Positions 4,503 through 26,250 of a stretch of 32,000 nucleotides of DNA are shown one piece after another (within the stretch, counting starts at the first letter, position 1; every line of letters begins with the position of its first letter). Where the stretch lies: assembly GCF_003072485.1 (NCBI RefSeq), contig NZ_CP025989.1, forward strand, positions 330,001 to 362,000. Reading direction: 5' to 3'. A program made the position numbers and the translations under genes. The notes beneath the pieces were generated by a model. It did not search any database, was not told where the DNA came from, and saw only the letters and a list, made by a program, of their open reading frames with translations. This DNA is from Candidatus Fokinia solitaria (GTDB lineage Bacteria; Pseudomonadota; Alphaproteobacteria; Rickettsiales; Midichloriaceae).

Positions 4503-5119
4503 TGTGTATCTCTCAAAATTTTTACTAATCTTTCCGGAAGTGGAATATCTTTTAAAGTATTATAGCTAATTTTACTCAAGTATGGAAATTGCGCTATCAC
4601 TTGAGTCTTGCCATAAAATTCTATTGCTTCCATGTTTTCATTTTTATCTTCACCATTCATAATCACTCCAAGAATATCAATCTTTCTCGTTCTTAATGCC
4701 TCTATACAAAGTAAAGTATGATTGATAGTACCAAGTTTTGCACTTGTAACTATAATTACTGAGATATTTAGTTTTTTTATCAGATCGATCATGAGATACT
4801 CATCGTTGATTGGTACAAGTAATCCTCCTGCGCCTTCAACGATTAAATTCTCCTCTTGTGGTAAAATTATTTTATCAATATCAATGCGCTCATTTTCAAG
4901 TTTAGCAGCAAGATGTGGAGATAAAGCTTTTTTATACACAAATTTTTCTTGATGTATTTTACCTTGAGAGAGATTCTTTACAGTCATAGAATCTGTATTA
5001 CCCTCGCTTATTCCTGTCTGTATAGGCTTGAAGTATGTAGCATCCATATGCAAAGTAAGCCAAGATGAAATTACCGTCTTTCCTATGTCGGTATCTGTGC
5101 CGCATATAAATACTTTCAT
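4499..5119 (-). CDS. bioD: dethiobiotin synthase
   Basis: 206 aa. It has the N-terminal P-loop ICGTDTDIGKT and an EGAGGLLVP segment. It has 4-nt overlaps with both bioA and bioC. Confidence 0.9.
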   Translation of the reverse strand: MKVFICGTDTDIGKTVISSWLTLHMDATYFKPIQTGISEGNTDSMTVKNLSQGKIHQEKFVYKKALSPHLAAKLENERIDIDKIILPQEENLIVEGAGGLLVPINDEYLMIDLIKKLNISVIIVTSAKLGTINHTLLCIEALRTRKIDILGVIMNGEDKNENMEAIEFYGKTQVIAQFPYLSKISYNTLKDIPLPERLVKILRDTQ

Positions 5120-5871
5120 GTTATATTTTTTTTAAAGATTCCGAAAAATATCTTATAAGAGATGATAAGAGGGCGCTTTTGTTCGCGTATTAATGTTCTT
5201 AGTATGCGAAACGGTATTTGCCTGTGTGATGCTGAAGCACCTAATGCTTTAAGGTATCTAATAAATGATAGTACAGTATCAAACTTTATAGTTCTATTCA
5301 TGGTCCAGTATTGGAAACAGCAATGTCCTTTGATTGTATTGCAATATTCTGCAAGCGCTGTTTCTTTAGGGTAATTTTGAAGTACGGTATCGGTGTATAT
5401 GTTAATAATATTCTGCCATTCTCGAAATGTACCATCTAGTAATGTGGAAAATGCAAATATTTGAGAACTATTCAAATACAATGTTTGGATAGTTTTTTGT
5501 AAATCTTCTACCCATTGCAAAGCGAAATTACTTACTATCAGATCGTGCATATCGATATCTAATTCTGCCATATCACCTTGTATAAAGGTGCAATTCGGAT
5601 TTTTAATGAATTTTAGCCTGCATATATCAAGCATTCTTTCAGCGATGTCATTTAATGTGTAATGGCTTTGAGGATATACTTTCATTAATGATTCAGTCAT
5701 ATAGCCAGTACCAGTACCTAAATCTAAAACTGTTTTAGGAGTAAAATTCTGAATTTTTGATAATTTTTTTATTAGAAAATTTCCCGCTTTTCGCTGAATT
5801 ATGGCAACTAAATCATATGTTTTATCTGCGCTGTTGAAGCGCTCTTGCACTTTACCAGAGATAGAAGCCAT
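5116..5871 (-). CDS. bioC: malonyl-[ACP] O-methyltransferase
   Basis: 251 aa, class-I SAM methyltransferase with motif I VLDLGTGTGY. Its position between bioH and bioD supports the call. Confidence 0.8.
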   Translation of the reverse strand: MASISGKVQERFNSADKTYDLVAIIQRKAGNFLIKKLSKIQNFTPKTVLDLGTGTGYMTESLMKVYPQSHYTLNDIAERMLDICRLKFIKNPNCTFIQGDMAELDIDMHDLIVSNFALQWVEDLQKTIQTLYLNSSQIFAFSTLLDGTFREWQNIINIYTDTVLQNYPKETALAEYCNTIKGHCCFQYWTMNRTIKFDTVLSFIRYLKALGASASHRQIPFRILRTLIREQKRPLIISYKIFFGIFKKNIT

Positions 5872-6502
5872 CTAGAAATTTCATAATTTTTTCATAAACA
5901 GCTAATGGACTAGCGAGTCCAAGTATGTGTTCACCGTTATCTATCACATCTAATTTTATATTTGTGTTACTGAAATTATCATGTATAACTTGCGGCGGTA
6001 CCACCATATCATTATCCGATGCTAGAACAAGTGTAGGAACGGATGGTAGCACTATTGTACTGCGTAGTAAGTTTAGTTCAGTGCACATTAGATCGGAATT
6101 TAAATCTTCTTTATTAGGGCATTTGATCAATAATGAAGTGCTACATCTGCTATAAAAAAGATCTAATGCAATCATAGGATCAGTTCTAAATTTATTTTCC
6201 AACATCTTTAATTCTTTTTCCCTTTCTCTTCGTAATATAGGATGAAATCCTAGAAAATTTCTAAAACCGTTCAAAGCGATTAGGCGTTCAAAGTTTTTAT
6301 GTAACTCAAGTAGTTTCAATAATCCTAGAGAATGTCCTATACCTATGATTTTTTCATCATGAGGTATGTTGAAATGTGAAGGCCTTCTAAAATATCCTAA
6401 ATCTATAAAAGTGCATTTTTCTTTACTAAAACATGGTGCAATCTTATCCCAAAAACTTGCATCAAATCCGAAGCCATGACAGAAGACAAAATGGTAACTC
6501 AT
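5852..6502 (-). CDS. bioH: pimeloyl-[ACP] methyl ester esterase (alpha/beta hydrolase)
   Basis: 216 aa. It has an FCHGFG oxyanion-type motif and the nucleophile elbow GIGHSLG (GxSxG). It is embedded in the bio operon, overlapping bioC by 20 nt and bioF by 4 nt. Confidence 0.75.
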   Translation of the reverse strand: MSYHFVFCHGFGFDASFWDKIAPCFSKEKCTFIDLGYFRRPSHFNIPHDEKIIGIGHSLGLLKLLELHKNFERLIALNGFRNFLGFHPILRREREKELKMLENKFRTDPMIALDLFYSRCSTSLLIKCPNKEDLNSDLMCTELNLLRSTIVLPSVPTLVLASDNDMVVPPQVIHDNFSNTNIKLDVIDNGEHILGLASPLAVYEKIMKFLDGFYLW

Positions 6503-7653
6503 TGTATTATTTCTCTTAAGTAGTTTACTAACCTTTCTATATCTTGCAGTTGATGCTTCGATGTCAGTGCTATTCTTATACGAGAAGAATTATGCGGCAC
6601 TGTAGGAGGTCTTATACAGGATACTGTAATTTCTCGTTTCATCAATGCATCTTTGATTTGTAAGCAGATTTTTTCTTCTTTGAAAATAATAGGAACAATG
6701 TGAGTGGCAGATGTGCCAATATCAAATCCAAATTCTTGAAGTTTTGTACGTAATATAGTGCCGAGAGTTTGCAAATGAGTGCGTTCATTTTGTAAAGACT
6801 TCACCATTGTCCAAGCTTTTGAAGCAGAACCAATAATGTGCGGTGAAGGCGCGGTAGAGTATACAAAACCAGTTGCTTTGTTTATGAGAAAATCAATGAT
6901 CGTTTTATTACTTGCGATGTAGCCTCCGCTACTTCCTATTGCTTTACTCAATGTACCCATTATAACATGAGGAATATTATGTAATTGCACTGTAGTAGAG
7001 AGCCCATATCCATTTTTGCCGAATAAGCCAGTTGCATGCGCTTCGTCCAGATATAAGAATGCTTGATGCTTCGTCGCAAGTGCTGCTATTTCTTTTAAAG
7101 GCGCTATATCGCCGTCCATGCCGAAAAGCGTTTCTGTTACGATGAACTTCGGTCTTGAATCATTTTTGTAACTTTCCATAAGCGACTTTAAGTGTTCAAC
7201 GTCGTTATGATGATATCTGCATAACTCTGCTTTACTAAGAAATACTGCTTGATAAAGACTTGAATGATTCAGTTTATCAAAGAAAACTATCGCTTTTCCT
7301 CGTAAAACTTTTTCGTCGAGTAAACATGATAATGTGCTTATATTCGCTTGAAAACCTGAACTAAAAAGCAAACAGGATTCTGTATTTTTATCTCTTGCGA
7401 TGATTTTTTCAAATTCTTCGTATAACGGTAAGTTGCCAGATAATAACCTTGAACCAGTTGCGCCTACGCCGTATTTTCGAGCGCTGATTATAGCCGCTTC
7501 TATAACTTCACTGTTCTGACTTAGATTGAGATAGTCGTTTGTCGAGAAGTCCAGGAAATTAGTATGTTTCTCTTGTATATCTCGTGTATTTAAGATTCTG
7601 TAACGATTATCATTGCGTAAAGTTAGTAGATATTCTTCGTATGATTTATACAT
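6499..7653 (-). CDS. bioF: 8-amino-7-oxononanoate synthase
   Basis: 384 aa, alpha-oxoamine synthase. It has DEAHATGLFG and the PLP-lysine context GTLSKAIGSSGGY. It is the first gene of the minus-strand bio operon. Confidence 0.9.
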   Translation of the reverse strand: MYKSYEEYLLTLRNDNRYRILNTRDIQEKHTNFLDFSTNDYLNLSQNSEVIEAAIISARKYGVGATGSRLLSGNLPLYEEFEKIIARDKNTESCLLFSSGFQANISTLSCLLDEKVLRGKAIVFFDKLNHSSLYQAVFLSKAELCRYHHNDVEHLKSLMESYKNDSRPKFIVTETLFGMDGDIAPLKEIAALATKHQAFLYLDEAHATGLFGKNGYGLSTTVQLHNIPHVIMGTLSKAIGSSGGYIASNKTIIDFLINKATGFVYSTAPSPHIIGSASKAWTMVKSLQNERTHLQTLGTILRTKLQEFGFDIGTSATHIVPIIFKEEKICLQIKDALMKREITVSCIRPPTVPHNSSRIRIALTSKHQLQDIERLVNYLREIIQ

Positions 7654-7962
7654 TTTTAAGATGTTCTTAACTGAGCGAGAATAATTTTATGTTGCGGATA
7701 TTCAAATGAAGGGAACGATATGCGATTCTGAGGTATTTTGAATATAGGAACTACTGTAATGTATTAGAGAAAGAGATTATTACAAGCAATATAACCACAT
7801 TTGAGAGAAGAAATGATATAAGTAGTGATTATTTTATGATGGATCCTTGAATTTTCTGTAAAGAAAAAAAATCGTACTAAGCTATTAGTATTAATGTACT
7901 AGCTTTTACATAAAGCACAAGTTATTTTGAGAGAGTTTTATAAGAGAAATTAGCATGCTGTT

Positions 7963-9618
7963 ATGAGTAAAGAGAAGCAAGAAAAACATAAATTTACTGT
8001 GAAGTTACTTAAAGAAAAAAAGATAGCGAGAGATGCGGTAAAAGAAGCAAAATGCGAAGAATTGAAAGGCGAGACAAAAGAAAAATGTGAAAAATCTGAA
8101 GGGAGCTTCATATTCTATAAACGTAATTCAGATGAGAGCAACTTTGGTAAAAAACCTTGGTGGATTGACTATTTTGCTCTTGATAAAACGAAGTTTAAAC
8201 GTAATTTTGTCGAATCTTTATTAGTATTTGTCACGGTAAAAGATAAAGAAAAAGAAAGAATTTTTGCATATACGTTCGGTGTAGCTCGTTATTGGTTAAG
8301 GGAAGAATGTATAGAAAGCGATTTTGGATATAAAGTTGCTTTAAATACGATAGATCCTACAAAGATAAAAAGTGTAGATGCTCGTAGCCTAGAAGGTAAT
8401 GCAAAGGATAAAAGAGTAGTATTTAGCAAAGGTATGGATATAGAAGAGTATGATTGTAACAAATTTCTAGATTTTATTCATAGGATATCAGGAAAAGTTA
8501 AAGAGCAGTATAAGCATCTGTTCGATTCTGTGGCTGGATCAGAGAGCTTGATGATAACAGCTACAAAATCGAAAGATGAATTGATTGCACTTTCAAAAGA
8601 GCTTTTAGAGAGATTTGAGTCAGATGATTACAAAAATGATGATTCTTTGAAAGAAATAAATATGACTTACTCAGTTGCTGATATAGAAGTGACTGAAAGA
8701 CTTGATGAAGAATTGGGGAAATTACTCAAAAAAAGAGACTATAGTACAATGTCTTTCTCTGATGTAAAAATTCTTGATCCTGATATTTTTGAGTACTACT
8801 TATTTAATGGAAAGAAATATTATGATATGGAGGAGATTTTTGATGCATGGCGTGACATGCACGGATCGGTAGATTTTAGCTCAGCAGACGTGCTCGGTAA
8901 AGAGTTGCGAAAAACAATAACAGTATATACGAATGATGATAAAGAGCTTGACTCATGGAAGGTAAAACAATGTCTGAATGCTGATAATATTAAATTTGAT
9001 GACAATGAGTATATGTTCTTACGAAAGAAGTGGTATAAAGTAGATCGAGATTTTCTGTCGTATGTAGAAAAGGAAGTAAAAGAATATGAAATAAATGATG
9101 AGTGGATTAGAAACATTTTTGTAGATTATGACTCAGAAAAATATCAAAAGAAAGGTCAAGGACCTTTTGGAGAGCAGGAGTACAATATCGATTGCTGTAA
9201 TGCTAATTCAGAGCAGTTAGTATTATTCGACCGCAAGATGGTGCAATCCGAAAATCATGGCAAGATAGAGATCTGTGATGTTTATTGTAAGAGTACTAAA
9301 ACGTTTTTTCATATTAAGAAAGGAGAAAAAACAGCTCTAATGAGTCATTTATGGATTCAAGGACTTACATCTGCTTTCTGCTTGAATGCGGAAGATAAAA
9401 GGTATGTTAGTAAATTTAAGGAATGTACGAAGCTTTCTTCTTTTCCTTCACAATCTGAAATAAAGATATGTTATGCTATTATCAGTCATAAAAAAGCATT
9501 AGCTACACTCTCTAATTTTTCACTATATGCAGCAATTGGAAAATTTAAGGAGGCGGGTTTTAAAAAGGAGCAGGTAAAATATTTTTTCATTAATGAGATT
9601 AAAGCAAAAAAAAACTAA
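7963..9618 (+). CDS. TIGR04141 / DUF6119-like 'sporadically distributed' protein, function unknown
   Basis: 551 aa. The segment ERIFAYTFGVARYWLREECIESDFGYKVALNTIDPTKIKSVDARSLEG matches what I recall as the family core (RIFAxTFGxxRxLL...IExxFGxxVALNxIDxxxxxSxD). The C-terminal KIEICDVYCKSTKTFFHIKKGEKTALMSHLWIQGLTS resembles the ExCD...HxK...SHLxxQG tail. This is recognition by eye only. Confidence 0.6.
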   Translation: MSKEKQEKHKFTVKLLKEKKIARDAVKEAKCEELKGETKEKCEKSEGSFIFYKRNSDESNFGKKPWWIDYFALDKTKFKRNFVESLLVFVTVKDKEKERIFAYTFGVARYWLREECIESDFGYKVALNTIDPTKIKSVDARSLEGNAKDKRVVFSKGMDIEEYDCNKFLDFIHRISGKVKEQYKHLFDSVAGSESLMITATKSKDELIALSKELLERFESDDYKNDDSLKEINMTYSVADIEVTERLDEELGKLLKKRDYSTMSFSDVKILDPDIFEYYLFNGKKYYDMEEIFDAWRDMHGSVDFSSADVLGKELRKTITVYTNDDKELDSWKVKQCLNADNIKFDDNEYMFLRKKWYKVDRDFLSYVEKEVKEYEINDEWIRNIFVDYDSEKYQKKGQGPFGEQEYNIDCCNANSEQLVLFDRKMVQSENHGKIEICDVYCKSTKTFFHIKKGEKTALMSHLWIQGLTSAFCLNAEDKRYVSKFKECTKLSSFPSQSEIKICYAIISHKKALATLSNFSLYAAIGKFKEAGFKKEQVKYFFINEIKAKKN

Positions 9619-10113
9619 GCAATTGCCAGTGAATGTTTGAGAGGAAATATGTCAGAATGCTCAGATGCGCAAGAAGTGATGATGTAAATAGGTAGGTATC
9701 AGCGACACACCGGTGGATGCTGATGGACGGAGTTGATGAATCTAGAAAACAATTTTGATACTTTGTTGTTATGTTAGTTTTTTGAAATATCAAGATTTTC
9801 TCATCAAATATGTCAGGAAACATGTAAGGAAACATGTCAAAATGTCATACTGCACCTTTATAATTTGCCTCTTTTTTATTGAAGCGCACATCCTTTAGCA
9901 TAGTGACGAAAGCCTGTTTTCTTGAGAAGAGTAAAGTGTTTTTAATTGTCTAGCATAGCCTATTATTTTACATCAATTGTATTAGTATGAAGTGTTTTAC
10001 AGTAGTAAAAATATAGAAGTCGATTTTTTTACAGAATTGATACAAAAGCAGTTGCGTTTAAACTGTATGCAAGGTATTGTCGAGTAGTGATTTTGGCAAC
10101 GGATTGAATAAAA

Positions 10114-11148
10114 GTGGAAATGACTGATGGAGAAATAAAGACATTTGATGAGGCTATAACAATGGCTGGTGACAAAAAACATCTATTGTTAGGAAATGGC
10201 TTTAGCATTGAGTATGATGCAGAAATATTTTCATATGATAAAATCTGTGAATGTATTAATAAAAATGAGAAATTATTAGAAATTACTAAGAAATTAAATA
10301 CTACTAATATCGAGGAGATCATGAGAATCCTTGATAGATGTATTGATGTCATAACGATTATTAAACCTCAAGAAAAGGATAAGAAGGATGATCCAATCTG
10401 TGAAGAATTGAAGAAGATAAAAGATGAATTTAAGAGCGCTTTAGTTACTGCTATATTGAAACTTCATCCTCAAAATTATGATAAGAGATCAAGGCAATTG
10501 AAGTTAGATTGTGAAAGATTTCTTGCTAATTTCGATAGCATATATACTTTAAATTTTGATTTACTGTCATATTGGGCAATGCCTTTTCAAAAGTTTAAAG
10601 ATGGTTTTGTTGGTAAAGGGGAGGAACGGCTTTACTTTGCTTATTGGTGCGGGTGCAACATGAGATTTTTACATGGAGCGCTGCATTTGTTTCACGATAA
10701 AGTCGGTACATATAAAATAAGACGTTCAAATGACACTCCAGACTATTTACTTATGCAGATTGCGCGGCAGATAGAAGATGGAAATTTTCCGATATGTGTT
10801 ATAGATGGTTCTGCAGAGGGTAAAAGGAATGCGATTTATAAAAACGATTATCTAAGAACATCATATGAAAATTTAAGGAATCTTTCCGGCTCACTATTCA
10901 TATACGGATGCTCTTTAAGCCCGAACGATGATCATATTCTAGAGGCAATTGGTCAGAGTAATGTAGATAAAATTTTTATCAGCTTATTCGGTACTGCTAC
11001 AGCGGAAGGTTATGATGGAGCGATACGTAAAATCAAGGAAGTAAGGAAAGCAAAGCAAGAGCAGATGAAAGAGGAGAATAATCAGCAAAAAGAGCCGGAA
11101 TTTTACTTCTTCTCTGCGAAAAGTGCTAACGTTTGGGGTAAAAAATAA
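10114..11148 (+). CDS. DUF4917-like protein with SIR2-type motifs (putative NAD-utilising effector)
   Basis: 344 aa. It has HLLLGNGFSI (aa 23-32, a GxGxS start as in DUF4917/SIR2_2), IYTLNFDLL (aa 143-151), RFLHGALH (aa 184-191) and IYGCSLSPNDDHI (aa 263-275). This is the same motif order as SIR2_2-type proteins (GAGxS ... TTNYD ... LHG ... GxSxxD). The start could be M1, M3 or M17. Confidence 0.6.
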   Translation: MEMTDGEIKTFDEAITMAGDKKHLLLGNGFSIEYDAEIFSYDKICECINKNEKLLEITKKLNTTNIEEIMRILDRCIDVITIIKPQEKDKKDDPICEELKKIKDEFKSALVTAILKLHPQNYDKRSRQLKLDCERFLANFDSIYTLNFDLLSYWAMPFQKFKDGFVGKGEERLYFAYWCGCNMRFLHGALHLFHDKVGTYKIRRSNDTPDYLLMQIARQIEDGNFPICVIDGSAEGKRNAIYKNDYLRTSYENLRNLSGSLFIYGCSLSPNDDHILEAIGQSNVDKIFISLFGTATAEGYDGAIRKIKEVRKAKQEQMKEENNQQKEPEFYFFSAKSANVWGKK

Positions 11149-11157
11149 TGTAAATGC

Positions 11158-11445
11158 GTGATTATGAAGATAGAGATGATACCGGTAAGATCGAGCAATC
11201 TAAAAGAGATTGGATATGATCATAAGAATGAGCTTTTGATAATTATCTTTCACAAAGGCGATGCTTATCGTTATACCAATGTACCTTATGATACTTATAC
11301 GCAATTAATGAAAGGTGATCCTGATAATAACTCCATTGGCAAGTATTTTTGTGCGCATATTAGAACAAATCCTCAGTATCGATATAGCAAATTAAGAGAG
11401 AAGAGTTTCAAGGATCATGATGGAAAAAAATTCTATGTAGAGTAA
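11158..11445 (+). CDS. KTSC domain-containing small protein
   Basis: 95 aa. MIPVRSSNLKEIGYDHKNELLIIIFHKGDAYRYTNVPYDTYTQLMKG....SIGKYFCAHIR fits the KTSC pattern (V-SS-I-x-x-GYD...L-x-V-x-F-xG-x-Y-x-Y-x-VP...Y..L....S.G.YF...I). The ORF-track start is GTG at 11158; ATG at 11164 is equally plausible. The gap to the upstream gene is only 9-15 nt. Confidence 0.75.
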   Translation: MIMKIEMIPVRSSNLKEIGYDHKNELLIIIFHKGDAYRYTNVPYDTYTQLMKGDPDNNSIGKYFCAHIRTNPQYRYSKLREKSFKDHDGKKFYVE

Positions 11446-11525
11446 GAAGGCAAAGGTAATATAAAAGTTGAAAGAGTTTTTATTAATTTAAGTCTATACT
11501 GAATATTTATTAAATAAAATAGTAC

Positions 11526-13850
11526 ATGAAGCTCGATGTTACGCTAAAGCATTGTTATGGCATACAAAATTTGGAGAAAAAATTTGACTTTTCACAGTGC
11601 AGAACAGTTGTCATATACGCCTCCAACGCAGTTATGAAGACTTCTTTTGCTAGAACATTTTTGCAATTACAAGAAGAAAAAAGGCCTTCAGAAGAGATAT
11701 ATGGCTTAGAATCCGAATTTAATATTAAATTAAATGACAATGATATTAAAAGTAGCGATATCTTTGTTATTAAAACTTATAGAGAGAAATATGAATCTGA
11801 GAATATATCAAAATTACTTGTTGATGAAAAACGACAAAAAGAATACGAGGAAATATGGCAGAGCATTGCAAAAAATCAGACGTCACTAATGGTTGCTCTA
11901 AATAAATCTTCAGGCATAGAAAAGAGTAGATTAGAAAAAACGATACTATCTGATTTTAAAGATGATAGCGGTAATTTTCTTAAGTTCTTAGAGGGCATTA
12001 AGATTGACGAAATTACTGACAGCGACTGCAACTACGTTGATGTTAAATATTCTCTCATTTTCAATCAAAAAGTTGAGGAATTATTAAAAAATAAAGATGT
12101 TACTGATAATATAGAACGTTACACAAAGCAATACAATGAGCTATTAGACAAGTCACCATACTTTGATAGAACAAAGTTTAATCCATCGAAAGCAGATAGT
12201 GTACTTAAAACACTTGAAAAACAAAAATTCTTTGCTTCAGGGCATAAAGTAAAATTAAAGGGTAAAAAAATTCTGCTAGATAAAGTAGAGCTGCAGAAAG
12301 TGCTCGATGAAGCGAAAAAAGCAATTTTACAGGACTCAGAGTTAAAAAGAATACAAAATCTGATTACAGAAGGACAAGATGTAAAAGACTTCCAAGATTT
12401 ATTGGAAGAAACGCCTGAGATAATTAATGAATTATCTGATTTATCTTCTTTTAGAGAGAAGCTTTGGAAATCATATTTCAAAAAGGACGAGGAAAAATTC
12501 AGAAAATTAGTGGAAGAGTATCAGCAAAATAGAGAGAACTTAACACATATTGAGGATGCTGCTTCAAAGCAACTAACAACATGGAGTAAGGTTGTGGATA
12601 TTTTTCGAGAAAGATTTAAGGTGCCATTTGAATTAGAGATCAAAAATAAAAAGAGCGCAATCTTAGGAAGAGAGAAGCCGCATATTGCATTTATATTTAA
12701 AGATAAAAACGGACTGTCTAAGGAACTTAATAGAGATACACTTGAAGGTGCGAGTACTTTAAGTCAAGGTGAAAAAAGAGCGTTGTATTTATTGCAAATA
12801 ATTTTTGAAATAGAAAATAGAAAGCAGAGTAATACAAGAACGTTATTCATCATCGATGATATTGCTGATTCTTTTGATTATCAAAATAAGTATGCCATTA
12901 TAGAATACTTAAAAGAATTACATACAGAAGAGAATAATTTCTATCAAATCATTTTAACGCATAATTTTGATTTTTTTAGAACAGCTCAAGAAAGAATTTT
13001 AACAGATGAGAATAAAAGAACGCACTCTTTTATAGCGCAAAAGAATGATGATAGCATTTCACTTTTTGAAGCTGGTCACAGATATATTGTCAGTCCTTTT
13101 TCTTACTGGAAAACGCAGTTAAAAGGGGAAATAGGTGAGCGTGAGAGACATAAAATTCTAATAGCAATGATACCATTCATGCGAGAATTGCTGCATTATA
13201 TCAGCGCAGAGAAAGAACGTAACAGCGCTTCAACCGATAAAAAAGAGGAACGTAACGGCACTTCAACTGGTGAAAAGAAAGATTGTAATAGCGCTTCAAT
13301 CGATAAAAAAGAGGAACGTAACGACACTTCAACCGATAAAAAAGAAGAATATTGCCGCACTTTAACTGCTCTACTACATGTGAAGTCTGAGACAAAAAAT
13401 CTTAAATTTTGCGATTTAAATGATATATATAAAGATCTGTTCGATATAGCTTTAACCAAAGAAGATAAAGATATTTGTATATTTGACGCATTGTGTGCTG
13501 CTGCTGATGATATTAGCGAGAGAGAAAATGATAGCGCTTTAAATCTTGAAAATAAAATTATACTCTCAATTGCTGCAAGATTGATGGCAGAATATTATAT
13601 GGAATCTCGTGACATATCACTGAAAGATAAGATAGGACAGACGTTTAATCGTTTTAAGAAAAAGTATGAAAAAGATGAAGCGACTCCATTCCTTGAAAGG
13701 GTTGTAATTATGACGCCAGAAAACATACATTTAAACTCTTTTATGTATGAGCCAATTCTTGATATGTCTGAACAACATTTAAAAAAGTTGTATAAGGATG
13801 TACGCGAATTGTATAAATCAATTTCGAGTACACCTGCTACAACATTTTGA
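11526..13850 (+). CDS. ABC/SMC-type ATPase of the AAA_13 (PrrC/RloC-like) kind, with coiled-coil insert, degenerate Walker A and C-terminal extension
   Basis: 774 aa. It has the signature motif LSQGEKRALYLL (aa 412-423), Walker B LFIIDDIADSFD (aa 440-451) and an H-loop-like IILTHNFDFFR (aa 475-485). About 370 K/E-rich residues separate the N-terminal nucleotide-binding half (VIYASNAVMKTS, aa 28-40) from the signature motif, as in Rad50/SMC-like ATPases. The ~290-aa C-terminal region has no motif I recognise. Confidence 0.65.
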   Translation: MKLDVTLKHCYGIQNLEKKFDFSQCRTVVIYASNAVMKTSFARTFLQLQEEKRPSEEIYGLESEFNIKLNDNDIKSSDIFVIKTYREKYESENISKLLVDEKRQKEYEEIWQSIAKNQTSLMVALNKSSGIEKSRLEKTILSDFKDDSGNFLKFLEGIKIDEITDSDCNYVDVKYSLIFNQKVEELLKNKDVTDNIERYTKQYNELLDKSPYFDRTKFNPSKADSVLKTLEKQKFFASGHKVKLKGKKILLDKVELQKVLDEAKKAILQDSELKRIQNLITEGQDVKDFQDLLEETPEIINELSDLSSFREKLWKSYFKKDEEKFRKLVEEYQQNRENLTHIEDAASKQLTTWSKVVDIFRERFKVPFELEIKNKKSAILGREKPHIAFIFKDKNGLSKELNRDTLEGASTLSQGEKRALYLLQIIFEIENRKQSNTRTLFIIDDIADSFDYQNKYAIIEYLKELHTEENNFYQIILTHNFDFFRTAQERILTDENKRTHSFIAQKNDDSISLFEAGHRYIVSPFSYWKTQLKGEIGERERHKILIAMIPFMRELLHYISAEKERNSASTDKKEERNGTSTGEKKDCNSASIDKKEERNDTSTDKKEEYCRTLTALLHVKSETKNLKFCDLNDIYKDLFDIALTKEDKDICIFDALCAAADDISERENDSALNLENKIILSIAARLMAEYYMESRDISLKDKIGQTFNRFKKKYEKDEATPFLERVVIMTPENIHLNSFMYEPILDMSEQHLKKLYKDVRELYKSISSTPATTF
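13215..13346 (+). repeat. four imperfect in-frame tandem repeats (33/36/30/33 nt) inside the ATPase gene
   Basis: The units are gaacgtaacagcgcttcaaccgataaaaaagag / gaacgtaacggcacttcaactggtgaaaagaaagat / tgtaatagcgcttcaatcgataaaaaagag / gaacgtaacgacacttcaaccgataaaaaagaa. They encode ERNSASTDKKE-ERNGTSTGEKKD-CNSASIDKKE-ERNDTSTDKKE. Confidence 0.9.
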
Positions 13851-13864
13851 AAGAAATTGCCTTT

Positions 13865-14413
13865 TTAAAAAGTATCATCTAGTCTTTTACTGAGAGCTAT
13901 AATATGCTCCGGTCTCCTATGATGTTCGCACATAAAAATATAAATATCCTTTAATAGATTTTCGCACATTTGAACGAGATCTTTTGTCCAAAGTGCTCGT
14001 TCGTATGGTGGTGCGCTCTTTTCCTGATTTTGAATGTGAATTCTATTACGAATTTCAGCAACTTTATAGATGCGCTCGTGTACTTCAGGTATGCTTAACA
14101 AGTCATACTTTTTACAGATATCACTGAAATTTTTTAATTTATTTGGAAGACTGATATCGCGTATTTTGCTGAGTGCTTTTGGCTCAAGAGTAATATTCAT
14201 GAATTCGTGTCGGTGCTTTGCAACCCTACATAAAAAATCATATAAACAACATTCAATAATGCTACTTATAATCAAGAAGATTGGCTTATAATATAAGGGT
14301 TTCTTCTCATTTATCATCGAAGTTACTATTTGCAAGTTATGATTGACATTATTTTTTCTATTAAAGTCCCAGAAAAACGTACTTGAATGCTCTTTGAGTT
14401 CAGATATTTTCAT
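13865..14413 (-). CDS. hypothetical protein, predicted all-helical, with a HEPN-reminiscent C-terminal helix
   Basis: 182-aa ORF convergent with the ATPase gene, with a 14-nt gap between the stops. It has no recognisable family. The helix pair IISSIIECCLYDFLCRV ... YKVAEIRNRIHIQN is HEPN-like, but the R-to-H spacing is one residue shorter than the canonical Rx4-6H. Confidence 0.5.
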   Translation of the reverse strand: MKISELKEHSSTFFWDFNRKNNVNHNLQIVTSMINEKKPLYYKPIFLIISSIIECCLYDFLCRVAKHRHEFMNITLEPKALSKIRDISLPNKLKNFSDICKKYDLLSIPEVHERIYKVAEIRNRIHIQNQEKSAPPYERALWTKDLVQMCENLLKDIYIFMCEHHRRPEHIIALSKRLDDTF

Positions 14414-14751
14414 AAAATCTTACAGTCGTGCTTTTTTATCAAATATGATCATGTATAATGACAATTCGAAAAGTATTCAATAGCGTCTAAGATACTCTTT
14501 TTATTAAAAATTCGTACTCTATACTTTAACTTTCTGTTTTTTATACAAATCTATAAAATATTCATCATAGAAAAAATCTATAATATATATCTTCACGTGA
14601 AGTATGCGCATCTCCGAAATTAAGGAGAAGACTTTAGACAATGAAATGATACTCTTAAAGATAGGCAGAGTATTAGATTGATGTTACGATAGAGTAAAAA
14701 TTAGCGTCTCAAAGAACATTCACGACGCAAAAGACGAGAGAGATCGTATGC

Positions 14752-14841
14752 TGGCGGAGAAAGAGGGATTCGAACCCTCGATACGGTCACCCGTATACTT
14801 TCTTAGCAGGAAAGCGCCTTCGACCACTCGGCCATTTCTCC
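14752..14841 (-). tRNA. tRNA-Ser (anticodon GCU), CCA encoded
   Basis: The reverse complement reads GGAGAAA-TG-GCC-GAGTGGTCGAA-GGC-G-CTTTC-CTGCTAA-GAAAG-TATACGGGTGACCGTATC-GAGGG-TTCGAAT-CCCTC-TTTCTCC-G-CCA. It has a 7-bp acceptor stem, a 5-bp anticodon stem, the loop CU-GCU-AA, a long variable arm (ATACGG/CCGTAT) typical of class II tRNAs, and a canonical T-loop. Confidence 0.92.
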
Positions 14842-15126
14842 GTCACACCATATAATCGGCGATGAGCGACGAAAAAGCAATAACTTTAATGCTGAAAAGC
14901 GTATCGAGAAGAGGCGAGTTACACGTCACCACTTTTTATTACTTTTTCTGTTGAAATTATCATTTTGTCGCACATTGTATTTGCAGTACAAAGCGCTGAT
15001 GCGTCACAGTGTAATTCTTCGCTTTATGTAAGATGGTGTCATTCTTCGTCGATACAGAGCAGTATAGTGCCGCTTATGCGGAAGATATTTGTGCGGCATT
15101 TGTGCGGTATTTATATCTTTTTCTTT

Positions 15127-15510
15127 CTTATACATCGCGATCTTTCTTCTTTCTTATATATCGAAATACTTACACATCGTAATCTTCTTTCTTACTTATA
15201 TGCTATAATCTTTCTTTTTCTCGAAGCAAAGAGGTAGATGCAGAAGATCGAAATACTTACACATCGTAATCTTCTTTCTTACTTATATGCCATAATCTTT
15301 CTTTTTTCTCGAAGCAAAGAGGTAGATGCAGAAGATCGAAATACTTACACATCGTAATCTTCTTTCTTACTTATATGCTACAATCTTTCTTTTTCTCGAA
15401 GCAAAGAGGTAGATGCAGAAGATCGAAATACTTACACATCGTAATCTTCTTTCTTACTTATATGCTATAATCTTTCTTTTTCTCGAAGCAAAGAGGTAGA
15501 TGCAGCAGAA
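15127..15510. repeat. noncoding tandem repeat array, 87/88-nt unit, 4 near-identical copies plus a degenerate partial copy
   Basis: Unit starts (tcgaaatacttacacatcg...) are at 15161, 15248, 15336 and 15423, giving periods of 87, 88 and 87. A degenerate partial copy lies at about 15127-15160. Hand translation of a unit finds stop codons in all six frames. Confidence 0.95.
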
Positions 15511-15547
15511 GGTAGTTTCTTCATTAGAGAAGTATGCAAACGAGATA

Positions 15548-15739
15548 CTAGCACTGATCTTTCTTCTGACTATATTTTTCAAAGCGAATGAAAGGATAGT
15601 TTGCAATGAATGCAAATCCTCGTACTTCATAGCCAAGACTACGACGATATTCAGCCGGCAGCAATGTCAAAATCTCACCAAGAAATGCCAAGTTATTGTA
15701 TATAATACCGTTAAAGTTTCTCTTTTTTTGATTAGCTTC
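15548..15739 (-). pseudogene. possible remnant of a RelE/HigB-like (phage-related, COG4679-type) toxin gene
   Basis: The minus-strand open frame has no start codon: EANQKKRNFNGIIYNNLAFLGEILTLLPAEYRRSLGYEVRGFAFIANYPFIRFEKYSQKKDQC*. The FLG....L..LPAEYRRSLGYE segment resembles the F-x-G-x-S...L...FP-x-x-x-R-x-x-x-G-Y-x-L start of that toxin family, and similarity is lost afterwards. Short stop-interrupted fragments also lie upstream at 15739-15960. Confidence 0.25.
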
Positions 15740-15997
15740 TTACTTTTTACTATCCTCAACAACTTTTCTCAGTATTTCAGCATTTGAGTTAATTGTACTC
15801 TCGAAAAGCCTAATCTCTTCAGCTAGAGCCATTTATTGAGCAATTTTTATCCTTCTCAGTATCTTTGTGTGAAACTCATCAACTTCTTTTGCTACTCTAT
15901 TTTAATACCGTAATTTGCACTATTGACACTATTTCTTCATCTTTCAAGAAAGTACCAAAACCACTATAAGAGCGATTAACTTTTTATGTGTGAGCTA

Positions 15998-16408
15998 TCA
16001 TACAGCAAAAGACTCGCCACATCCGCATTTAGCCTTTGCATTTGGATTAAGAAACACAAAACCGCTTCTGATTTTTTCATCCTTATAATCGAGAGTTGTG
16101 CCTATAATATACAGTATTGCTTTTTTGTCTATTAATAGCTTGATATCTCCGAATTCGACAACTTCATATGTAGTGGATGAGTCAGAATATACATAATCGA
16201 AAGTATATGAAAGACCTGTACAGCCTCCTTTTTTTACTCCTATTGCGAGACCTATGGCATCCTGCTTGTTAGATAGTAAGGAGCGCACTCTACCAGCTGC
16301 GCTATCTGTGATATTGATGATAGATTTCCTTGTGCTTGATGGTAAATTGTCATTTTTCGCTACTTCAGAATTAGAAGTGACATTTTGAGAGCAGCAAGAA
16401 GTTTTCAT
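15998..16408 (-). CDS. erpA: iron-sulfur cluster insertion/assembly protein (HesB/IscA/ErpA family)
   Basis: 136 aa. It has GGCTGLSY and the C-terminal CGCGESF motif of A-type carriers. It also carries a ~28-aa Ser/Asn-rich N-terminal extension. Confidence 0.85.
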   Translation of the reverse strand: MKTSCCSQNVTSNSEVAKNDNLPSSTRKSIINITDSAAGRVRSLLSNKQDAIGLAIGVKKGGCTGLSYTFDYVYSDSSTTYEVVEFGDIKLLIDKKAILYIIGTTLDYKDEKIRSGFVFLNPNAKAKCGCGESFAV

Positions 16409-16569
16409 ATTACACTCTAAAAGTACGATGCGGACATGATATCAGATAACAAAACTGAAACAAGTAGTATCTCGTGTGCATAAGATATTTTGAACGCGCG
16501 TTTATCAAATATTGTAGAAGAGGGATGTACATAATGGAAGTGCATTTCATCGCTATTTTATTGAGTACT

Positions 16570-18534
16570 TCAATATGTTGTATAGTTCTTTATACCGTAC
16601 TTCTGACGTAAATGCGCTAAATACTCATAGTATATGATTGAATCGTACATATGTTTTACTTTGCTATAAAATTCACTTGTTTGAATCAAATTGTATGATT
16701 GTATCGAGGGATATCGTATACTCTCTAAGCTTGCAAAGCATATTTCATTTTCTGCACATAAGACCAATTTTGTGACAGGTTCAGGTACGGATAAATGCTG
16801 TAAACTTTCAACTATTGTATTATCGATGTTAGTTTGATTATCTAATTTATCTATTATAATTTTCTGCTTTGTAATGCTACTCTTGATATCACTTTGCTGA
16901 AGACACTTTGAGTGAATTTCTTGTATTGTAGCACTACTGCTGTTTAGTCGTTTCTGATAGTACAGATTTGAGATATTTCCTTGTATACAAGCATGGAAGG
17001 GAGAAATTTTTTCAATGCCGAATGCGAGTCTTTTATATTTTCGTATTATCTTATCTGCAATCTTCTTAATTTCCTCAAATGAAAGGCGTTTTGCGCGCAT
17101 GATATCGGAGACTCGAATAACATATATTGTTTTATGCGCATCGTCATTAACGATTTCTATAATATCGACAGCTTTATTGTTTTTCAGCTGAAATGCAGCA
17201 TCTGCAACTTCTTGATCTGTGACTAATTGATATGTTTTTACAGCATTAAAGTTTTGAATTTCTGACAGCAACACCTCTTCTACGATTTTATTTGGTGTTT
17301 TTTGCGTTAAAACGTCAAATTTGATTTGCTTATTATATCTTTTAGAAATGGATGTTAGATCTGAAAGCTGCGAATTTTCTAATTCTTCAGATATTTTGTC
17401 AATTGCTATCAATTGTTTATTTTTGCGTATTGCCTCAGCTGCTTTTGTAATAACGGCAGGAGAATTAATATCTTCATATTGAGCTTGATATATTTTTTGA
17501 ATAAGGAAAATATGCCATCCTATAGGCGTGGAGAATGGTCCTATATACTCATTAACGCTAGAAGAAAAAAGCTTTTCATTTAATATTTGATATTGTTCAA
17601 ATGTCTCTTTATTGACCTTTTCAAGTAGAGGCGCTGCATCAAGTAATAGAGATGCAGTATATTTCTTCTTTAATTCAGCGATAGATATTGCAGGCTTGAG
17701 ACGTATATCATCATATGCTTTGAGAGCGCTATCGTAATCTTTAAAAACTATCTGCGCGATATCTCTTTTTTCCGCGACGAAAAACATCTCTTTATTCTGA
17801 TTATAAAACTCCTCTATTTCCGCATGTGTTATTTTATCAGTAGGTATCTCGGACGATTCTATCAAAATATACTCTACTTTTCTCCTTTCTGGTATATTGG
17901 TATCAACTTTCATCTCATTGATGAATTTCGCTATCTCTTCTTCTGTTATCTGAATTTCTGGAATCTTATATTTGTATAACTGTATCGTTTTTGTATTTAC
18001 TAATGCAGGTGTCAACATATCAACAGTTTCCTGTGGCACTATCGTATATTCAAAGAAACGTAAAAGCTGCTTTTTCAATATTTCGTTCTTCATTTTATCA
18101 ATGAATTTTTCTTCGGGAATATTGTACTGCTTTAAAGTTTCTTTGTATTTTAGTACGTTAAATTTACCCTCTTCGGTGAAATCTTTAATCTTGCTAAGCT
18201 CTTTTTTTAGCATTTTATCCGACACTACAAGTCCAATTTGATTTGCTTCTTCGGAAAGCATCGTTTCCTCTATCAGTGTTTTTATAGTCATTACTCTAAT
18301 AGTTTCCGCAGGATATCCAAGCATTTTATCTGCAAGTTTATGCATTGCAATTTTGATATCTTGCTCAGTAATTACAGCGTTGCCTACTTTTATAGTGGTA
18401 CTTTTACTACTTTTTAAGTGACTGATTATTAGATCTCCTGCACACATTGAGATTACTCCAAGTAAAAGAAAGATTTGTAATATCGATTTATTGGATATAC
18501 GCTTAAACATTGTTTTACTGTTACCGTTATGCAT
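16570..18534 (-). CDS. periplasmic chaperone / parvulin-type peptidyl-prolyl isomerase (PpiD/SurA-like)
   Basis: 654 aa. It has an N-terminal membrane anchor (ILQIFLLLGVISMCAG), a SurA-N-like start, and a parvulin-like GPFSTPIGWHIFLIQK segment. The size is typical of PpiD-like proteins in reduced alphaproteobacteria. Confidence 0.6.
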   Translation of the reverse strand: MHNGNSKTMFKRISNKSILQIFLLLGVISMCAGDLIISHLKSSKSTTIKVGNAVITEQDIKIAMHKLADKMLGYPAETIRVMTIKTLIEETMLSEEANQIGLVVSDKMLKKELSKIKDFTEEGKFNVLKYKETLKQYNIPEEKFIDKMKNEILKKQLLRFFEYTIVPQETVDMLTPALVNTKTIQLYKYKIPEIQITEEEIAKFINEMKVDTNIPERRKVEYILIESSEIPTDKITHAEIEEFYNQNKEMFFVAEKRDIAQIVFKDYDSALKAYDDIRLKPAISIAELKKKYTASLLLDAAPLLEKVNKETFEQYQILNEKLFSSSVNEYIGPFSTPIGWHIFLIQKIYQAQYEDINSPAVITKAAEAIRKNKQLIAIDKISEELENSQLSDLTSISKRYNKQIKFDVLTQKTPNKIVEEVLLSEIQNFNAVKTYQLVTDQEVADAAFQLKNNKAVDIIEIVNDDAHKTIYVIRVSDIMRAKRLSFEEIKKIADKIIRKYKRLAFGIEKISPFHACIQGNISNLYYQKRLNSSSATIQEIHSKCLQQSDIKSSITKQKIIIDKLDNQTNIDNTIVESLQHLSVPEPVTKLVLCAENEICFASLESIRYPSIQSYNLIQTSEFYSKVKHMYDSIIYYEYLAHLRQKYGIKNYTTY

Positions 18535-18605
18535 GGTATTAGTTTTATATTCTCAATCTGATTTCGTCTAGCTTAGTCTTAAGTGAACTTTGGTATTGTA
18601 TCTGT

Positions 18606-19829
18606 ATGCAACTTTGGAAAAAATCGATTATCGGTATGCTTGGAGGAATACTATGCGGGGTATTTCTTCGTTACTATCATTGTGAATACGGTGTATTGAT
18701 ATTGAATTGTATGGAGGTACTTTCGACTCTTTACACCAATGCTTTAAAGATGATGATCATACCAGTAGTATTCTTCGCTGTGCTATTTGGTATTGTTAAT
18801 ACATCTGATATACAGCAATTTAAGAAAGTAGGGCTAAAAGCCATAGCAGTATGTGTTGTGAGTGCGATTATATCTTCTGGAATAGGATTGAGTCTCGGTA
18901 TTGTGATGCAGCCAGGAAGTGGAGTGAGTATTCAGTTGAGTGAAGAAGGCAATACATCGCAAAATGAGTTAGGGCACTTTATAGGAAATATTATACCGTC
19001 TAATCCGTTTGAAGCAATGTGTGCAGGAAATACGCTACAGGTTGTAGTTTTTGCATTTATTATTGGAATTGGTATCTTACTTACCCCTCATAGAGATGAA
19101 GCGAAAAAATTCGTGATTGTTACATCACAGATTCTTTTTAAAGTGATGGAAATTGTGATGAATTTTGCACCATATGGAGTATTCGCGATCATTTTATGTA
19201 TGACGGCAAAGCATGGATATGATGTACTGCATGGCCTTGGAAAGCTGTCAGGAGTGATCTTAGTAGGATTATGCGTCCAATATGTTGTCTTTCTATTAGC
19301 TGCGCGATTGATTAAGATTAAGCCGTTTCGTCTTCAACGCAAACTGTTTGAAACGCAAATGTTAGCATTTTCTACTTCATCATCTAAAGCTTGTATAGTG
19401 AAAGCGATAGACTTGCTACAGCATAAATTAGGAGTTTCGAGTAAGATTGCGAATTTCATATTACCACTAAGTACATCGGTAAATATGTCAGCGATTTCAA
19501 TTAGTTTGAGTATTAGCGCTTTATTCTTTGCGCAAGCGCTTGGTATGACAATCTCTACGATGGATTATTGTATAATAGTTCTCACCTCTACTCTTGGTGC
19601 TATAGGTGGCGCTGGTATACCAAGCGGCACTATTGTAATGATGAGTTTAGTATTATCATCTGTAGGTATTTCAGCAAGTGTAATACCGCTTCTTATAGGA
19701 TTTGATAGAGTACTTGATATGTGTAGAACTGTAATTAATATCACCGGAGATATCGTACTTACGTTGATAATGGCGAAGATTGAAGGTGAATTGGATCTAT
19801 TTGAGTGCAATAAGAGTGAAAAAATATGA
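18606..19829 (+). CDS. dicarboxylate/amino acid:cation symporter (GltP/DctA family)
   Basis: 407 aa and polytopic. It has FSTSSSKA, GAGIPSGT and DRVLDMCRTVINITGD, which are DAACS-family hallmarks. It overlaps dnaB by 4 nt (ATGA). Confidence 0.85.
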   Translation: MQLWKKSIIGMLGGILCGVFLRYYHCEYGVLILNCMEVLSTLYTNALKMMIIPVVFFAVLFGIVNTSDIQQFKKVGLKAIAVCVVSAIISSGIGLSLGIVMQPGSGVSIQLSEEGNTSQNELGHFIGNIIPSNPFEAMCAGNTLQVVVFAFIIGIGILLTPHRDEAKKFVIVTSQILFKVMEIVMNFAPYGVFAIILCMTAKHGYDVLHGLGKLSGVILVGLCVQYVVFLLAARLIKIKPFRLQRKLFETQMLAFSTSSSKACIVKAIDLLQHKLGVSSKIANFILPLSTSVNMSAISISLSISALFFAQALGMTISTMDYCIIVLTSTLGAIGGAGIPSGTIVMMSLVLSSVGISASVIPLLIGFDRVLDMCRTVINITGDIVLTLIMAKIEGELDLFECNKSEKI

Positions 19830-21238: not shown

Positions 21239-21263
21239 CGTGCTGACGTCGGCAAATTTTTTT
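21235..21263 (+). terminator. weak candidate intrinsic terminator after dnaB
   Basis: The stem ctgacg (21235-21240) / cgtcgg (21247-21252) is 6 bp including one G-U pair, with the loop tgctga. It is followed by caaa and a 7-T run at 21257-21263. The stem is short, so this is tentative. Confidence 0.3.
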
Positions 21264-21407
21264 AATATGATTTTTCAAATTTGCCTTATAGAGAAAAGTG
21301 CAATTTTTTTTATATATGGTGTAATTCAATTCAAATAAATGAATTTTATAAAAAAGCAAAGATCGTGCTATTTAAGCTGAAAATAGAAAAATGCATTAAT
21401 CGTATCG

Positions 21408-22187
21408 CTATACATTGGTGTTCTGCTTCTCTAAAAACTCTTCTGCAAGCATCATATATGAGATTGAGCCGGTACACTTAGAATCATATATAATTGCAGG
21501 CTTACCGTGAGATGGTGCTTCTGAAAGTTTTACATTTCTAGGTATTAGTGTGCGATATACTGTATCTCCTAATTCGTTTCTTACTTCTTGTACTATCTCA
21601 TGACAGATGTTGTTTCTCTTATCAAACATTGTCACTACTATACCTTCTATTTTTATTTGTGCGTTAATGGTGTTTTGCACTAATTTTATAGTATTTAAAA
21701 TGTATGCTAAACCTTCCATTGGAAGAAATTCGCACTGTAGAGGTATAATTACGCTGTTTGCACACGCAAAGGCATTTAATGTCAAAACACCAATTGATGG
21801 AGGGCAATCTATAAAAATGAAATCGTATCGTGGCAGCAATTCTTTTATTGCTGTCTTTAGAATAAGTTCAGGCATTGCTACTTTTAACAACTCCTTTTCC
21901 GCTATTGCTAATTGAATAGTAGACGTGATAATTTCCATATTATCTATATCAGCACTAACAGGTACTACAGAAGGGCTGACTTTATTCAATAGTACTTCGT
22001 ATAGAGTATAAACTCTCTTTGCATTTTCTATACCAAAGCTTGTACTTAAGTTACCTTGTGGATCGCTATCTATGAGTAATACTCTATACCCAATTACAGA
22101 GAGTGCTGTTGCGAGATTGACAACTGTTGTTGTCTTTCCTACTCCTCCTTTTTGATTTGCAACGGCTATTACTTTAGCCATGATCAA
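21408..22187 (-). CDS. parA: ParA/Soj-family partition ATPase
   Basis: 259 aa with the deviant Walker A NQKGGVGKTTT. It has typical Soj length and motifs (DSDPQGN, IDCPPS). The start is probably MAKV, two codons in. Confidence 0.85.
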   Translation of the reverse strand: MIMAKVIAVANQKGGVGKTTTVVNLATALSVIGYRVLLIDSDPQGNLSTSFGIENAKRVYTLYEVLLNKVSPSVVPVSADIDNMEIITSTIQLAIAEKELLKVAMPELILKTAIKELLPRYDFIFIDCPPSIGVLTLNAFACANSVIIPLQCEFLPMEGLAYILNTIKLVQNTINAQIKIEGIVVTMFDKRNNICHEIVQEVRNELGDTVYRTLIPRNVKLSEAPSHGKPAIIYDSKCTGSISYMMLAEEFLEKQNTNV

Positions 22188-22307
22188 TACTGCACAAGTC
22201 TATGATGAAACGTCAAAACGATTGTAATGGTGAAATACATAAAAATCCATTCTTGCGAACTTATAGCATGATATTTGCGGTGAAATCGCTAAAAGTGCTG
22301 ATAAAAA

Positions 22308-23042: not shown

Positions 23043-23053
23043 GCCAGATCTGA

Positions 23054-26189: not shown

Positions 26190-26250
26190 TTGATACTTGA
26201 TGCGTTTTATAATACCATTTCCATGGAAACGCGAGTATGGCTTTTAGTAA

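Follow-up and report, generated by a model that had tools for sequence, protein, structure and literature searches.

A probable variable-content hotspot between tRNA-Ser and the biotin operon of 'Candidatus Fokinia solitaria', with five stand-alone genes of defence-island and plasmid type

What lies between the biotin operon and erpA in the genome of 'Candidatus Fokinia solitaria', and by what route did it come to be there? The question arises in an unusual setting, a Paramecium endosymbiont whose genome was, at publication, the smallest reported in the Rickettsiales (PMC5905368); the contig measures 837,348 bp (837 kb). A 32-kb stretch of this contig (hereafter the window) contains, at positions 7654-15997, a span that an earlier note on the same DNA had described as an accessory island bounded by a tRNA-Ser gene. 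Our analysis suggests, with a probability that we put at roughly 60%, that the interval between tRNA-Ser(GCU) and bioF is a hotspot of variable content, occupied in F. solitaria by an islet of ~7.1 kb made up of five independently acquired, stand-alone genes of the type found in defence islands and on plasmids. Their products are a DUF6119/TIGR04141 protein, a sirtuin-like protein of the DUF4917 family, a small KTSC-domain protein, an ABC ATPase resembling Rad50 and SMC proteins (candidate family PDC-S46 of PADLOC) and a protein of an unnamed family, referred to here as orf182 (Table 1). Such gene content is typical of defence islands and plasmid cargo, a likeness that the earlier note had not recognised.

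The variability of the interval emerges from comparison with one relative, a 45.9-kb Logan contig from SRR19308774 (L001) whose PpiD protein is 73% identical to that of F. solitaria. This was the single relative above 25% identity in a protein-database search with PpiD; a scan of genome contigs with the same protein, in a collection that does not hold F. solitaria itself, gave no further relatives, and a metagenome pattern search for tRNA-Ser together with its conserved upstream motif returned 0 matches; exact look-ups of the erpA protein of the window and of the NCBI PpiD protein produced no record. The gene order of the relative is the same (ileS-nusG-secE-…-dnaB-SDF-ppiD-erpA-tRNA-Ser and, further on, bioF-bioH-bioC-bioD-bioA), and blastn recovered collinear blocks of 76-78% nucleotide identity at window positions 3374-7658, in the bio operon, and 16000-28569, from erpA onward. 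The tRNA-Ser gene and the 57 nt upstream of it (147 nt in all) are 91% identical between the two genomes by blastn. In the alignments, similarity to the relative extends as far as the terminal CCA of tRNA-Ser on one side of the islet and stops some 5-8 nt upstream of the bioF ATG on the other. Between these breaks lie 7.09 kb in F. solitaria versus 4.87 kb in the relative, with unrelated gene content: in place of the islet, the relative has (at 12701-17566 of its contig) genes for a DUF1398 protein, a GNAT acetyltransferase and a CADD-like iron-containing redox enzyme (Pfam Haem_oxygenas_2), and a broken DPRP gene. With tblastn run in both directions, neither genome showed any vestige of the other's gene set. 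The synteny check thus bears out the view of the earlier note that the stretch is lineage-specific, as the flanks are collinear and nothing between the tRNA 3' end and bioF is common to the two genomes at the DNA or protein level; in this single comparison, the islet is missing from the relative, which carries unrelated genes at the site. We note that the DPRP (photolyase-related) gene of the relative is split into three open reading frames (ORFs) and represents a decaying pseudogene.

On the erpA side of the tRNA gene, the spacing also differs, with 1.1 kb in F. solitaria versus 76 bp in the relative. Because the conserved core DNA around the tRNA gene splits the span flagged earlier, this span consists of two independent lineage-specific segments, the gene islet proper (segment A) and a noncoding stretch next to erpA (segment B). 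The earlier statement that the span is free of housekeeping genes overlooks tRNA-Ser and the 57 nt upstream, which belong to the conserved core.

The five islet ORFs are full length across their family profiles and keep every family-invariant residue. Elsewhere, homologues of the islet genes are associated with restriction-modification (R-M) systems, integrases, resolvases, toxin-antitoxin genes and plasmids, and four of the five proteins match rare phage protein families of the PHROG collection. No two of the islet genes were found together in 157 other loci (80 around DUF4917, 72 around DUF6119 and 5 around the ATPase), indicating that the islet brings together single-gene modules rather than forming a multi-gene system. 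The nearest sampled homologues are 58% identical for the ATPase, 49% for orf182, at most 37% for DUF4917 and at most 28% for DUF6119, an unequal divergence that would fit separate gene histories. From the association with R-M, integrase, plasmid and toxin-antitoxin genes, the matches to two candidate models of PADLOC and the preservation of the catalytic motifs, we infer that the islet genes have an anti-phage or other defence function.

The longest of the five genes encodes the Rad50/SMC-like ATPase, a member of a family with more than 4,500 homologues, the best of which are 55-58% identical and lie on AT-rich contigs of freshwater metagenomes. None of the invariant motifs has been lost, and the protein has the ABC signature LSQGEKRAL, the Walker B motif IIDDIADSFD and the H-loop LTHNFD. 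An AlphaFold2 model of the protein (predicted local distance difference test, pLDDT, 84; predicted TM-score, pTM, 0.70) matched the heads of Rad50, SMC and condensin and the ATPases of retron complexes with a Foldseek probability of 1.0, the TM-scores being low (0.2-0.4) because of the coiled coil. An in-frame tandem repeat of 33-nt units adds to the protein an insertion of 44 residues (KKEERN.TST-type units) that no homologue has, placed in a predicted disordered loop (residues 569-599, pLDDT <50). In other genomes the gene stands alone near resolvases, DUF3800 genes, PIN-helix-turn-helix (HTH) pairs or housekeeping genes, and it is present on 29 plasmids and on one record from a phage collection.

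The DUF4917 protein retains all invariant motifs of its family, LLLGNGFS, YTLN(F/Y)DLL (in the form YTLNFDLL) and LHGALHL. Its nearest metagenomic homologues are 28-37% identical, and those found on plasmids are stand-alone genes adjoining type I R-M, recombinase, toxin-antitoxin or DUF3800 genes. The protein also has a full-length match to the PADLOC candidate PDC-S21, a family for which, to our knowledge, no anti-phage activity has been established. The KTSC gene follows closely downstream and its product has matches in PHROG. A conserved DUF4917-KTSC-ATPase operon was considered as a candidate and ruled out, the genes showing no co-occurrence in the 157 loci or in the plasmid contexts.

The DUF6119 protein is intact, with a match over positions 1-517 of the 524 in the Pfam profile and scores that exceed the curated cut-offs of 27 bits (Pfam) and 35 bits (NCBIfam). 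It is also very divergent, being no more than 28% identical to any of 72 genomic homologues or to the plasmid copies, and keeps all of the family-invariant residues E436, D439, K452, S461, H462 and Q466. The 72 genomes represent many bacterial phyla, an archaeon, a bacterium of the candidate phyla radiation (CPR) and a Paracaedibacteraceae symbiont. Neighbours at these loci include tyrosine integrases (8 loci), HsdM (7), HsdR (7), HsdS (5), YgjP (5) and rve transposases (4), and a Paracoccus plasmid has the arrangement hsdS-DUF6119-hsdR. A profile built from 39 sequences had no match in the PDB, and AlphaFold2, run on an alignment of three sequences, gave no usable model (pLDDT 34); since structure searches thus gave nothing, the suggestion that the protein is a nuclease comes solely from the invariant E..D..K pattern. 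A literature search for DUF6119, TIGR04141 and PDC-S46 found no paper on function, the first two each being mentioned in passing in one or two unrelated papers. The homologue from the Paracaedibacteraceae lies in a metagenome-assembled genome (MAG) assigned to Candidatus Paracaedibacteraceae (L061, match at 7001-8104) and is 25% identical to the Fokinia copy.

The fifth gene, orf182, is convergent with the ATPase gene and belongs to a family with 191 representatives (50% clustering, E<=1e-3), the best of which is 49% identical. The family is characterised by an RNxxHIQ motif in which R122, N123, H126 and I127 are invariant and Q128 almost so. A HEPN ribonuclease, a type of protein with an Rx4-6H motif, was considered as a candidate identity for orf182; the invariant RNxxH of the family has only three residues between R and H, and neither Pfam nor a profile search of the PDB gave a match. 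Homologues of orf182 on plasmids adjoin a resolvase or a pair consisting of an ATPase and an S8 peptidase. The public annotation of the gene appears to be truncated, giving a protein of 111 residues from an internal Met, and homologues align from residue 4 of the 182-residue ORF.

Table 1. Features of the tRNA-Ser-bioF interval and its surroundings (window coordinates)
Feature	Position	Strand	Remarks
bioF	6499..7653	-	First gene of bioFHCDA (BOOM-type) operon; Pfam Aminotran_1_2; conserved left flank, outside islet
Noncoding spacer, 309 nt	7654..7962		Between divergent bioF and DUF6119
Segment A, gene islet	7659-14751		Homology break to homology break
DUF6119/TIGR04141 'sporadically distributed' protein, 551 aa	7963..9618	+	Pfam 335 bits; NCBIfam 260 bits
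Noncoding gap, 495 nt	9619..10113		Between DUF6119 and DUF4917; no Pfam match in any frame
12-nt x2.7 mini-repeat (AAACATGTAAGG)	9806-9837		Inside 495-nt gap
DUF4917 sirtuin-like protein, 344 aa	10114..11148	+	Pfam 134 bits; PADLOC candidate PDC-S21, 274 bits, full length
KTSC-domain protein, 95 aa	11158..11445	+	Pfam KTSC 55 bits; starts 9 nt after DUF4917; PHROG matches
Rad50/SMC-like ABC ATPase, 774 aa	11526..13850	+	PADLOC candidate PDC-S46, 749 bits
In-frame tandem repeat, 33-nt x4.2, in ATPase gene	13213..13349	+	Tandem Repeats Finder (TRF)
orf182, 182-aa protein of unnamed family	13865..14413	-	Convergent with ATPase gene
Noncoding spacer, 338 nt	14414..14751		Reaches tRNA 3' end
tRNA-Ser(GCU)	14752-14841	-	ARAGORN; Rfam 61 bits; 3' end towards islet genes
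Conserved core block, tRNA-Ser and 57 nt upstream	14752..14898	-	Separates the two variable segments
Segment B, 1.1 kb noncoding, F. solitaria-specific	14899..15999		Between tRNA promoter region and erpA
Degenerate 26-nt x1.9 repeat	15115-15163		Precedes minisatellite
87-bp x4.0 minisatellite, 97% matches	15160..15509		TRF score 670
erpA	15998..16408	-	Pfam Fe-S_biosyn; conserved right flank, outside islet; homology to L001 restarts at 16000
PpiD-like protein gene	16570-18534	-	Product 100% identical to 'Ca. Fokinia solitaria' protein

In mechanistic terms, each islet gene might by itself supply both the sensor and the effector of a response to invading DNA or phage. The DUF4917 protein would consume NAD+, or transfer a group from it, by means of its intact sirtuin motifs. 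In the ATPase, an ATP-driven Rad50-like head with its coiled coil may recognise foreign DNA or protein, upon which the C-terminal helical domain would signal, and the DUF6119 protein could be a nuclease acting through its invariant E..D..K core. As to how and when the islet arrived, we infer that the genes were probably brought in by a single integration or recombination event, or by several, beside the tRNA gene, after which the recombinase and the attachment (att) sites would have been lost and the base composition would have become host-like. The concrete features in the earlier description of the locus are real: the five intact ORFs, the noncoding gaps of 309, 495 and 338 nt, the tRNA-Ser(GCU) gene and the tandem array were all found where it had placed them, and both ARAGORN and Rfam confirm that the 3' end of the tRNA faces the islet genes. 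Coding density is 71% over positions 7654-15997 versus 95% in the left flank and 91% in the right.

Several observations weigh against a hotspot filled with acquired defence genes. The window lacks an integrase, a transposase and an att duplication, as the earlier note had already remarked: no Phage_integrase, rve or resolvase domain occurs in any ORF or six-frame fragment, no flanking direct repeats were found in the window, and no partial copy of tRNA-Ser is plausibly positioned in any part of the 32 kb, whether as an exact match of at least 12 nt or as 14-20 nt with 1-3 mismatches. Given that there is neither an integrase nor an att repeat, integration targeted to the tRNA gene and followed by loss of the recombinase is plausible rather than observed. 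The GC content of the islet (0.32 versus 0.35) is no compositional anomaly, and the profiles of GC, skew and codon usage proposed in the earlier note as a signal of transfer provided none. GC content at third codon positions (GC3) is 0.27-0.32 in the islet genes versus 0.24-0.35 in the other genes of the window, and the islet genes match the codon usage of reference genes at least as well as other genes do. There is a strong positive GC skew over positions 7500-13000, which reflects just the purine-rich coding strands (purine fraction 0.57-0.60 in the plus-strand islet genes, 0.545 in orf182 and 0.51-0.58 elsewhere). Composition cannot date the event, because the closest homologues of the ATPase also lie on contigs of 27-30% GC.

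The defence function itself meets with further objections. The PADLOC matches to PDC-S21 and PDC-S46 are strong and concern candidate models, DUF6119, KTSC and orf182 have no model, and no validated system was identified; in the literature we found no demonstrated anti-phage activity for the islet families. The threat that the islet genes would counter is not evident, since the genome paper reports just two insertion sequence (IS) elements and few phage sequences in F. solitaria (PMC5905368). In C. jejuni, the DUF4917 protein SliP is a sirtuin that is secreted and removes acetyl groups from host histones (PMC10421069). Finally, with one relative and no outgroup, gain, replacement and loss of genes at the site are not distinguishable.

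The last of these points leads to a history of differential loss, whereby the ancestor of the two lineages would have had, between tRNA-Ser and bioF, a larger block with both gene sets, of which each lineage kept a complementary subset during genome reduction with no later gain. Fokinia genomes are strongly reduced (PMC5905368), and such a history would suit the host-like composition and codon usage of the islet as well as its want of mobility genes and att sites; the three pieces of the DPRP gene in the relative speak for ongoing decay, and the long noncoding gaps of F. solitaria could be erased genes. We nevertheless consider it rather unlikely, given that the two gene sets (five versus four genes) have no gene in common and leave no remnant detectable by tblastn either way, that the breakpoints coincide exactly with the tRNA 3' end and the bioF start, and that all five families are sporadic mobile cargo elsewhere. 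It may also be asked whether the islet genes are decaying relics, open by chance and no longer functional, as the low coding density, the extreme divergence of DUF6119 and DUF4917, the in-frame repeat expansion in the ATPase gene and the minisatellites nearby would suggest. This appears quite improbable, for the five ORFs span their profiles end to end with every family-invariant residue kept, 5.8 kb of unconstrained ORF in an AT-rich genome would soon gain stop codons, and the repeat insertion is confined to a disordered loop.

A different use of the genes can be envisaged in view of SliP: some of them, chiefly the DUF4917 sirtuin, might be exported to modify Paramecium proteins instead of acting against phages. 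The sirtuin motifs are intact in the Fokinia protein, F. solitaria possesses secretion systems and putative secreted proteins (PMC5905368), and obligate intracellular bacteria usually have few defence systems (PMC9090908). Outside pathogens, however, DUF4917 genes are found on plasmids near R-M, recombinase and toxin-antitoxin genes, PADLOC includes the family among its defence candidates, and interaction with the host would leave the other four islet genes unexplained; we regard this role as distinctly unlikely. As for the possibility raised in the earlier note that the islet and the biotin operon travelled together, the lateral-transfer history of the operon on which it drew is well founded, in that a 2026 study puts the bio genes of Fokinia spp. 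in the BOOM clade, transferred among Paramecium symbionts including Fokinia spp. (PMC13134042). Islet and operon are also physically adjacent, and conservation between the two genomes does not extend to the region upstream of bioF. Joint travel as a single mobile unit is nonetheless scarcely tenable, and is contradicted for the time since the two Fokinia lineages split: bioFHCDA is collinear in the relative, ~76% identical and in the same position with respect to erpA and tRNA-Ser, and wholly different genes stand in place of the islet. Moreover, the terms DUF4917, DUF6119, KTSC and TIGR04141 do not occur in the supplements of the Megaera BOOM paper. The BOOM operon thus adjoins the hotspot and yet has been stable there, outside the mobile content; whether it originally landed at the same hotspot is a matter of speculation.

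Segment B, on the other side of the tRNA gene, differs in character from the islet. It had no Pfam or Rfam match and no coding signal, and its 87-bp repeat units fold no better than shuffled sequence (z-scores 0.2-1.1). The degenerate 26-nt repeats that precede the minisatellite have a common TTTCTTTCTTAT core. A similar TTTTTCTTTCTTAT motif is present in the short spacer of the relative, and segment B may therefore be a local repeat expansion. For the stop-riddled gene fragments of the earlier note, descent from genes could not be substantiated: Pfam matched none of the six-frame translations of positions 14842-15997 or of the gaps at E<=10, tblastn found nothing similar in the relative, and no copies of the sequence occur in other parts of the window. 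A putative transposase remnant at 15540-15860 (minus strand), resembling by eye the N-terminus of an IS5-type protein, was dropped for lack of a Pfam match at the same cut-off. We regard segment B as neutral repeat DNA whose expansion was separate from the gene islet. Across the gaps of the window and the 87-bp repeat, tRNA was the sole Rfam family matched, weak matches being limited to one below threshold that overlaps the tRNA on the opposite strand and one to a miRNA family at E 0.64. A scan for promoters and terminators found fewer sites than in shuffled sequence, and the spacer between bioF and DUF6119 was likewise not enriched.

To the left of the two segments, the window contains prs, an EVE-domain gene and bioB (plus strand), followed by bioA-bioD-bioC-bioH-bioF (minus strand), which terminates at 7653; to the right come erpA, ppiD, a dicarboxylate symporter, dnaB, parA and further genes as far as ileS. 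The DNA immediately upstream of bioF, presumed to hold the BOOM promoter region (7640-7800 versus 17425-17585 in the relative), is unrelated in the two genomes beyond ~5-8 nt, and regulation of the biotin operon may therefore differ between these two Fokinia-like genomes. The EVE-domain gene (1451-1894, minus strand) has prs and bioB as its neighbours and is separated from the islet by the biotin operon. In the right part of the window, an ORF for the ATPase of an ABC transporter (22308-23042, minus strand) encodes 244 residues versus the 195 called in the relative (5579-6166), and nucleotide homology to the relative is interrupted at 23260-23470. Two ORFs of 207 and 129 residues at 30695-31755 (minus strand) consist mostly of histidine-rich repeats (HPHLAHFMYQHPHLAAHAAHFMHNHPH) encoded by a 102-bp x3.9 tandem array at 31331-31720; local GC content is 0.42 in this region versus ~0.33 in the remaining window, and neither ORF had a significant Pfam match, the match to RasGEF at E 0.008 being below the cut-off.

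What makes the islet noteworthy is the host in which it is found. Surveys find known defence systems to be scarce or absent in obligate intracellular bacteria, and note that these might carry unknown ones instead (PMC9090908). It is possible, and we suggest it tentatively, that the smallest known Rickettsiales genome keeps working single-gene modules of immunity or conflict at a tRNA-flanked hotspot, or else that the DUF4917 sirtuin, at least, has been re-used against the ciliate host. If the former is true, cytoplasmic symbionts of Paramecium would remain exposed to phages, plasmids or competing symbionts, and the locus would stand as a concrete counter-example to the notion of defence-poor intracellular bacteria, in the form of five intact defence-island-type genes within an endosymbiont genome of 837 kb, at a site turned over since the split from its relative. 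Genes would then also appear to have kept entering Fokinia after its genome was reduced. For functional studies, the islet provides compact, naturally isolated representatives of DUF6119, PDC-S46 and the RNxxHIQ protein, all of them uncharacterised families.

Among known systems, the ATPase is structurally nearest to the heads of Rad50 and SMC proteins and to the ATPases of retrons and of the Septu type (PtuA), with which it shares a coiled coil inserted between the two head halves. The PDC-S46 family departs from them in its unusual P-loop (YASNxxMKTS), present throughout, in an additional conserved C-terminal helical domain ending in the motif TPENIHLNSFMYEP, and in having no adjacent partner nuclease (PtuB, HNH or an equivalent of Mre11) here or in the other contexts examined; within the family, the repeat insertion of 44 residues sets the Fokinia protein apart. 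The Fokinia DUF4917 protein has in common with PDC-S21 the full-length match to the profile hidden Markov model (HMM), the sirtuin motifs GxGxS, TxNxD and HG and the stand-alone gene, and differs from its members in being just 28-37% identical to any sampled homologue. Its link to SliP, a secreted deacetylase, consists only of the shared Pfam family. The position of DUF6119 genes in other genomes, ~10% of the 72 loci being near HsdM, HsdR or HsdS, recalls that of PrrC- and RloC-style genes within type I R-M operons; unlike in that arrangement, the Fokinia gene has no R-M genes beside it, and the protein has no link in sequence or structure to PrrC or RloC. As a whole, the islet resembles tRNA-flanked defence islands in abutting the 3' end of a tRNA gene, in differing wholly from the content of the site in the nearest relative, in carrying stand-alone cargo and in having a coding density below that of the core genome. 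It differs from classical islands integrated at tRNA genes in that it is devoid of an integrase, an att direct repeat and a compositional deviation, and from defence islands in that its cargo includes no experimentally validated system. The islet is thus an ordinary and familiar kind of variable hotspot, which leaves the understanding of how such islands work unchanged; what is unusual is the host, an obligate intracellular symbiont with a genome of 837 kb, from a group in which defence systems are usually few or absent (PMC9090908).

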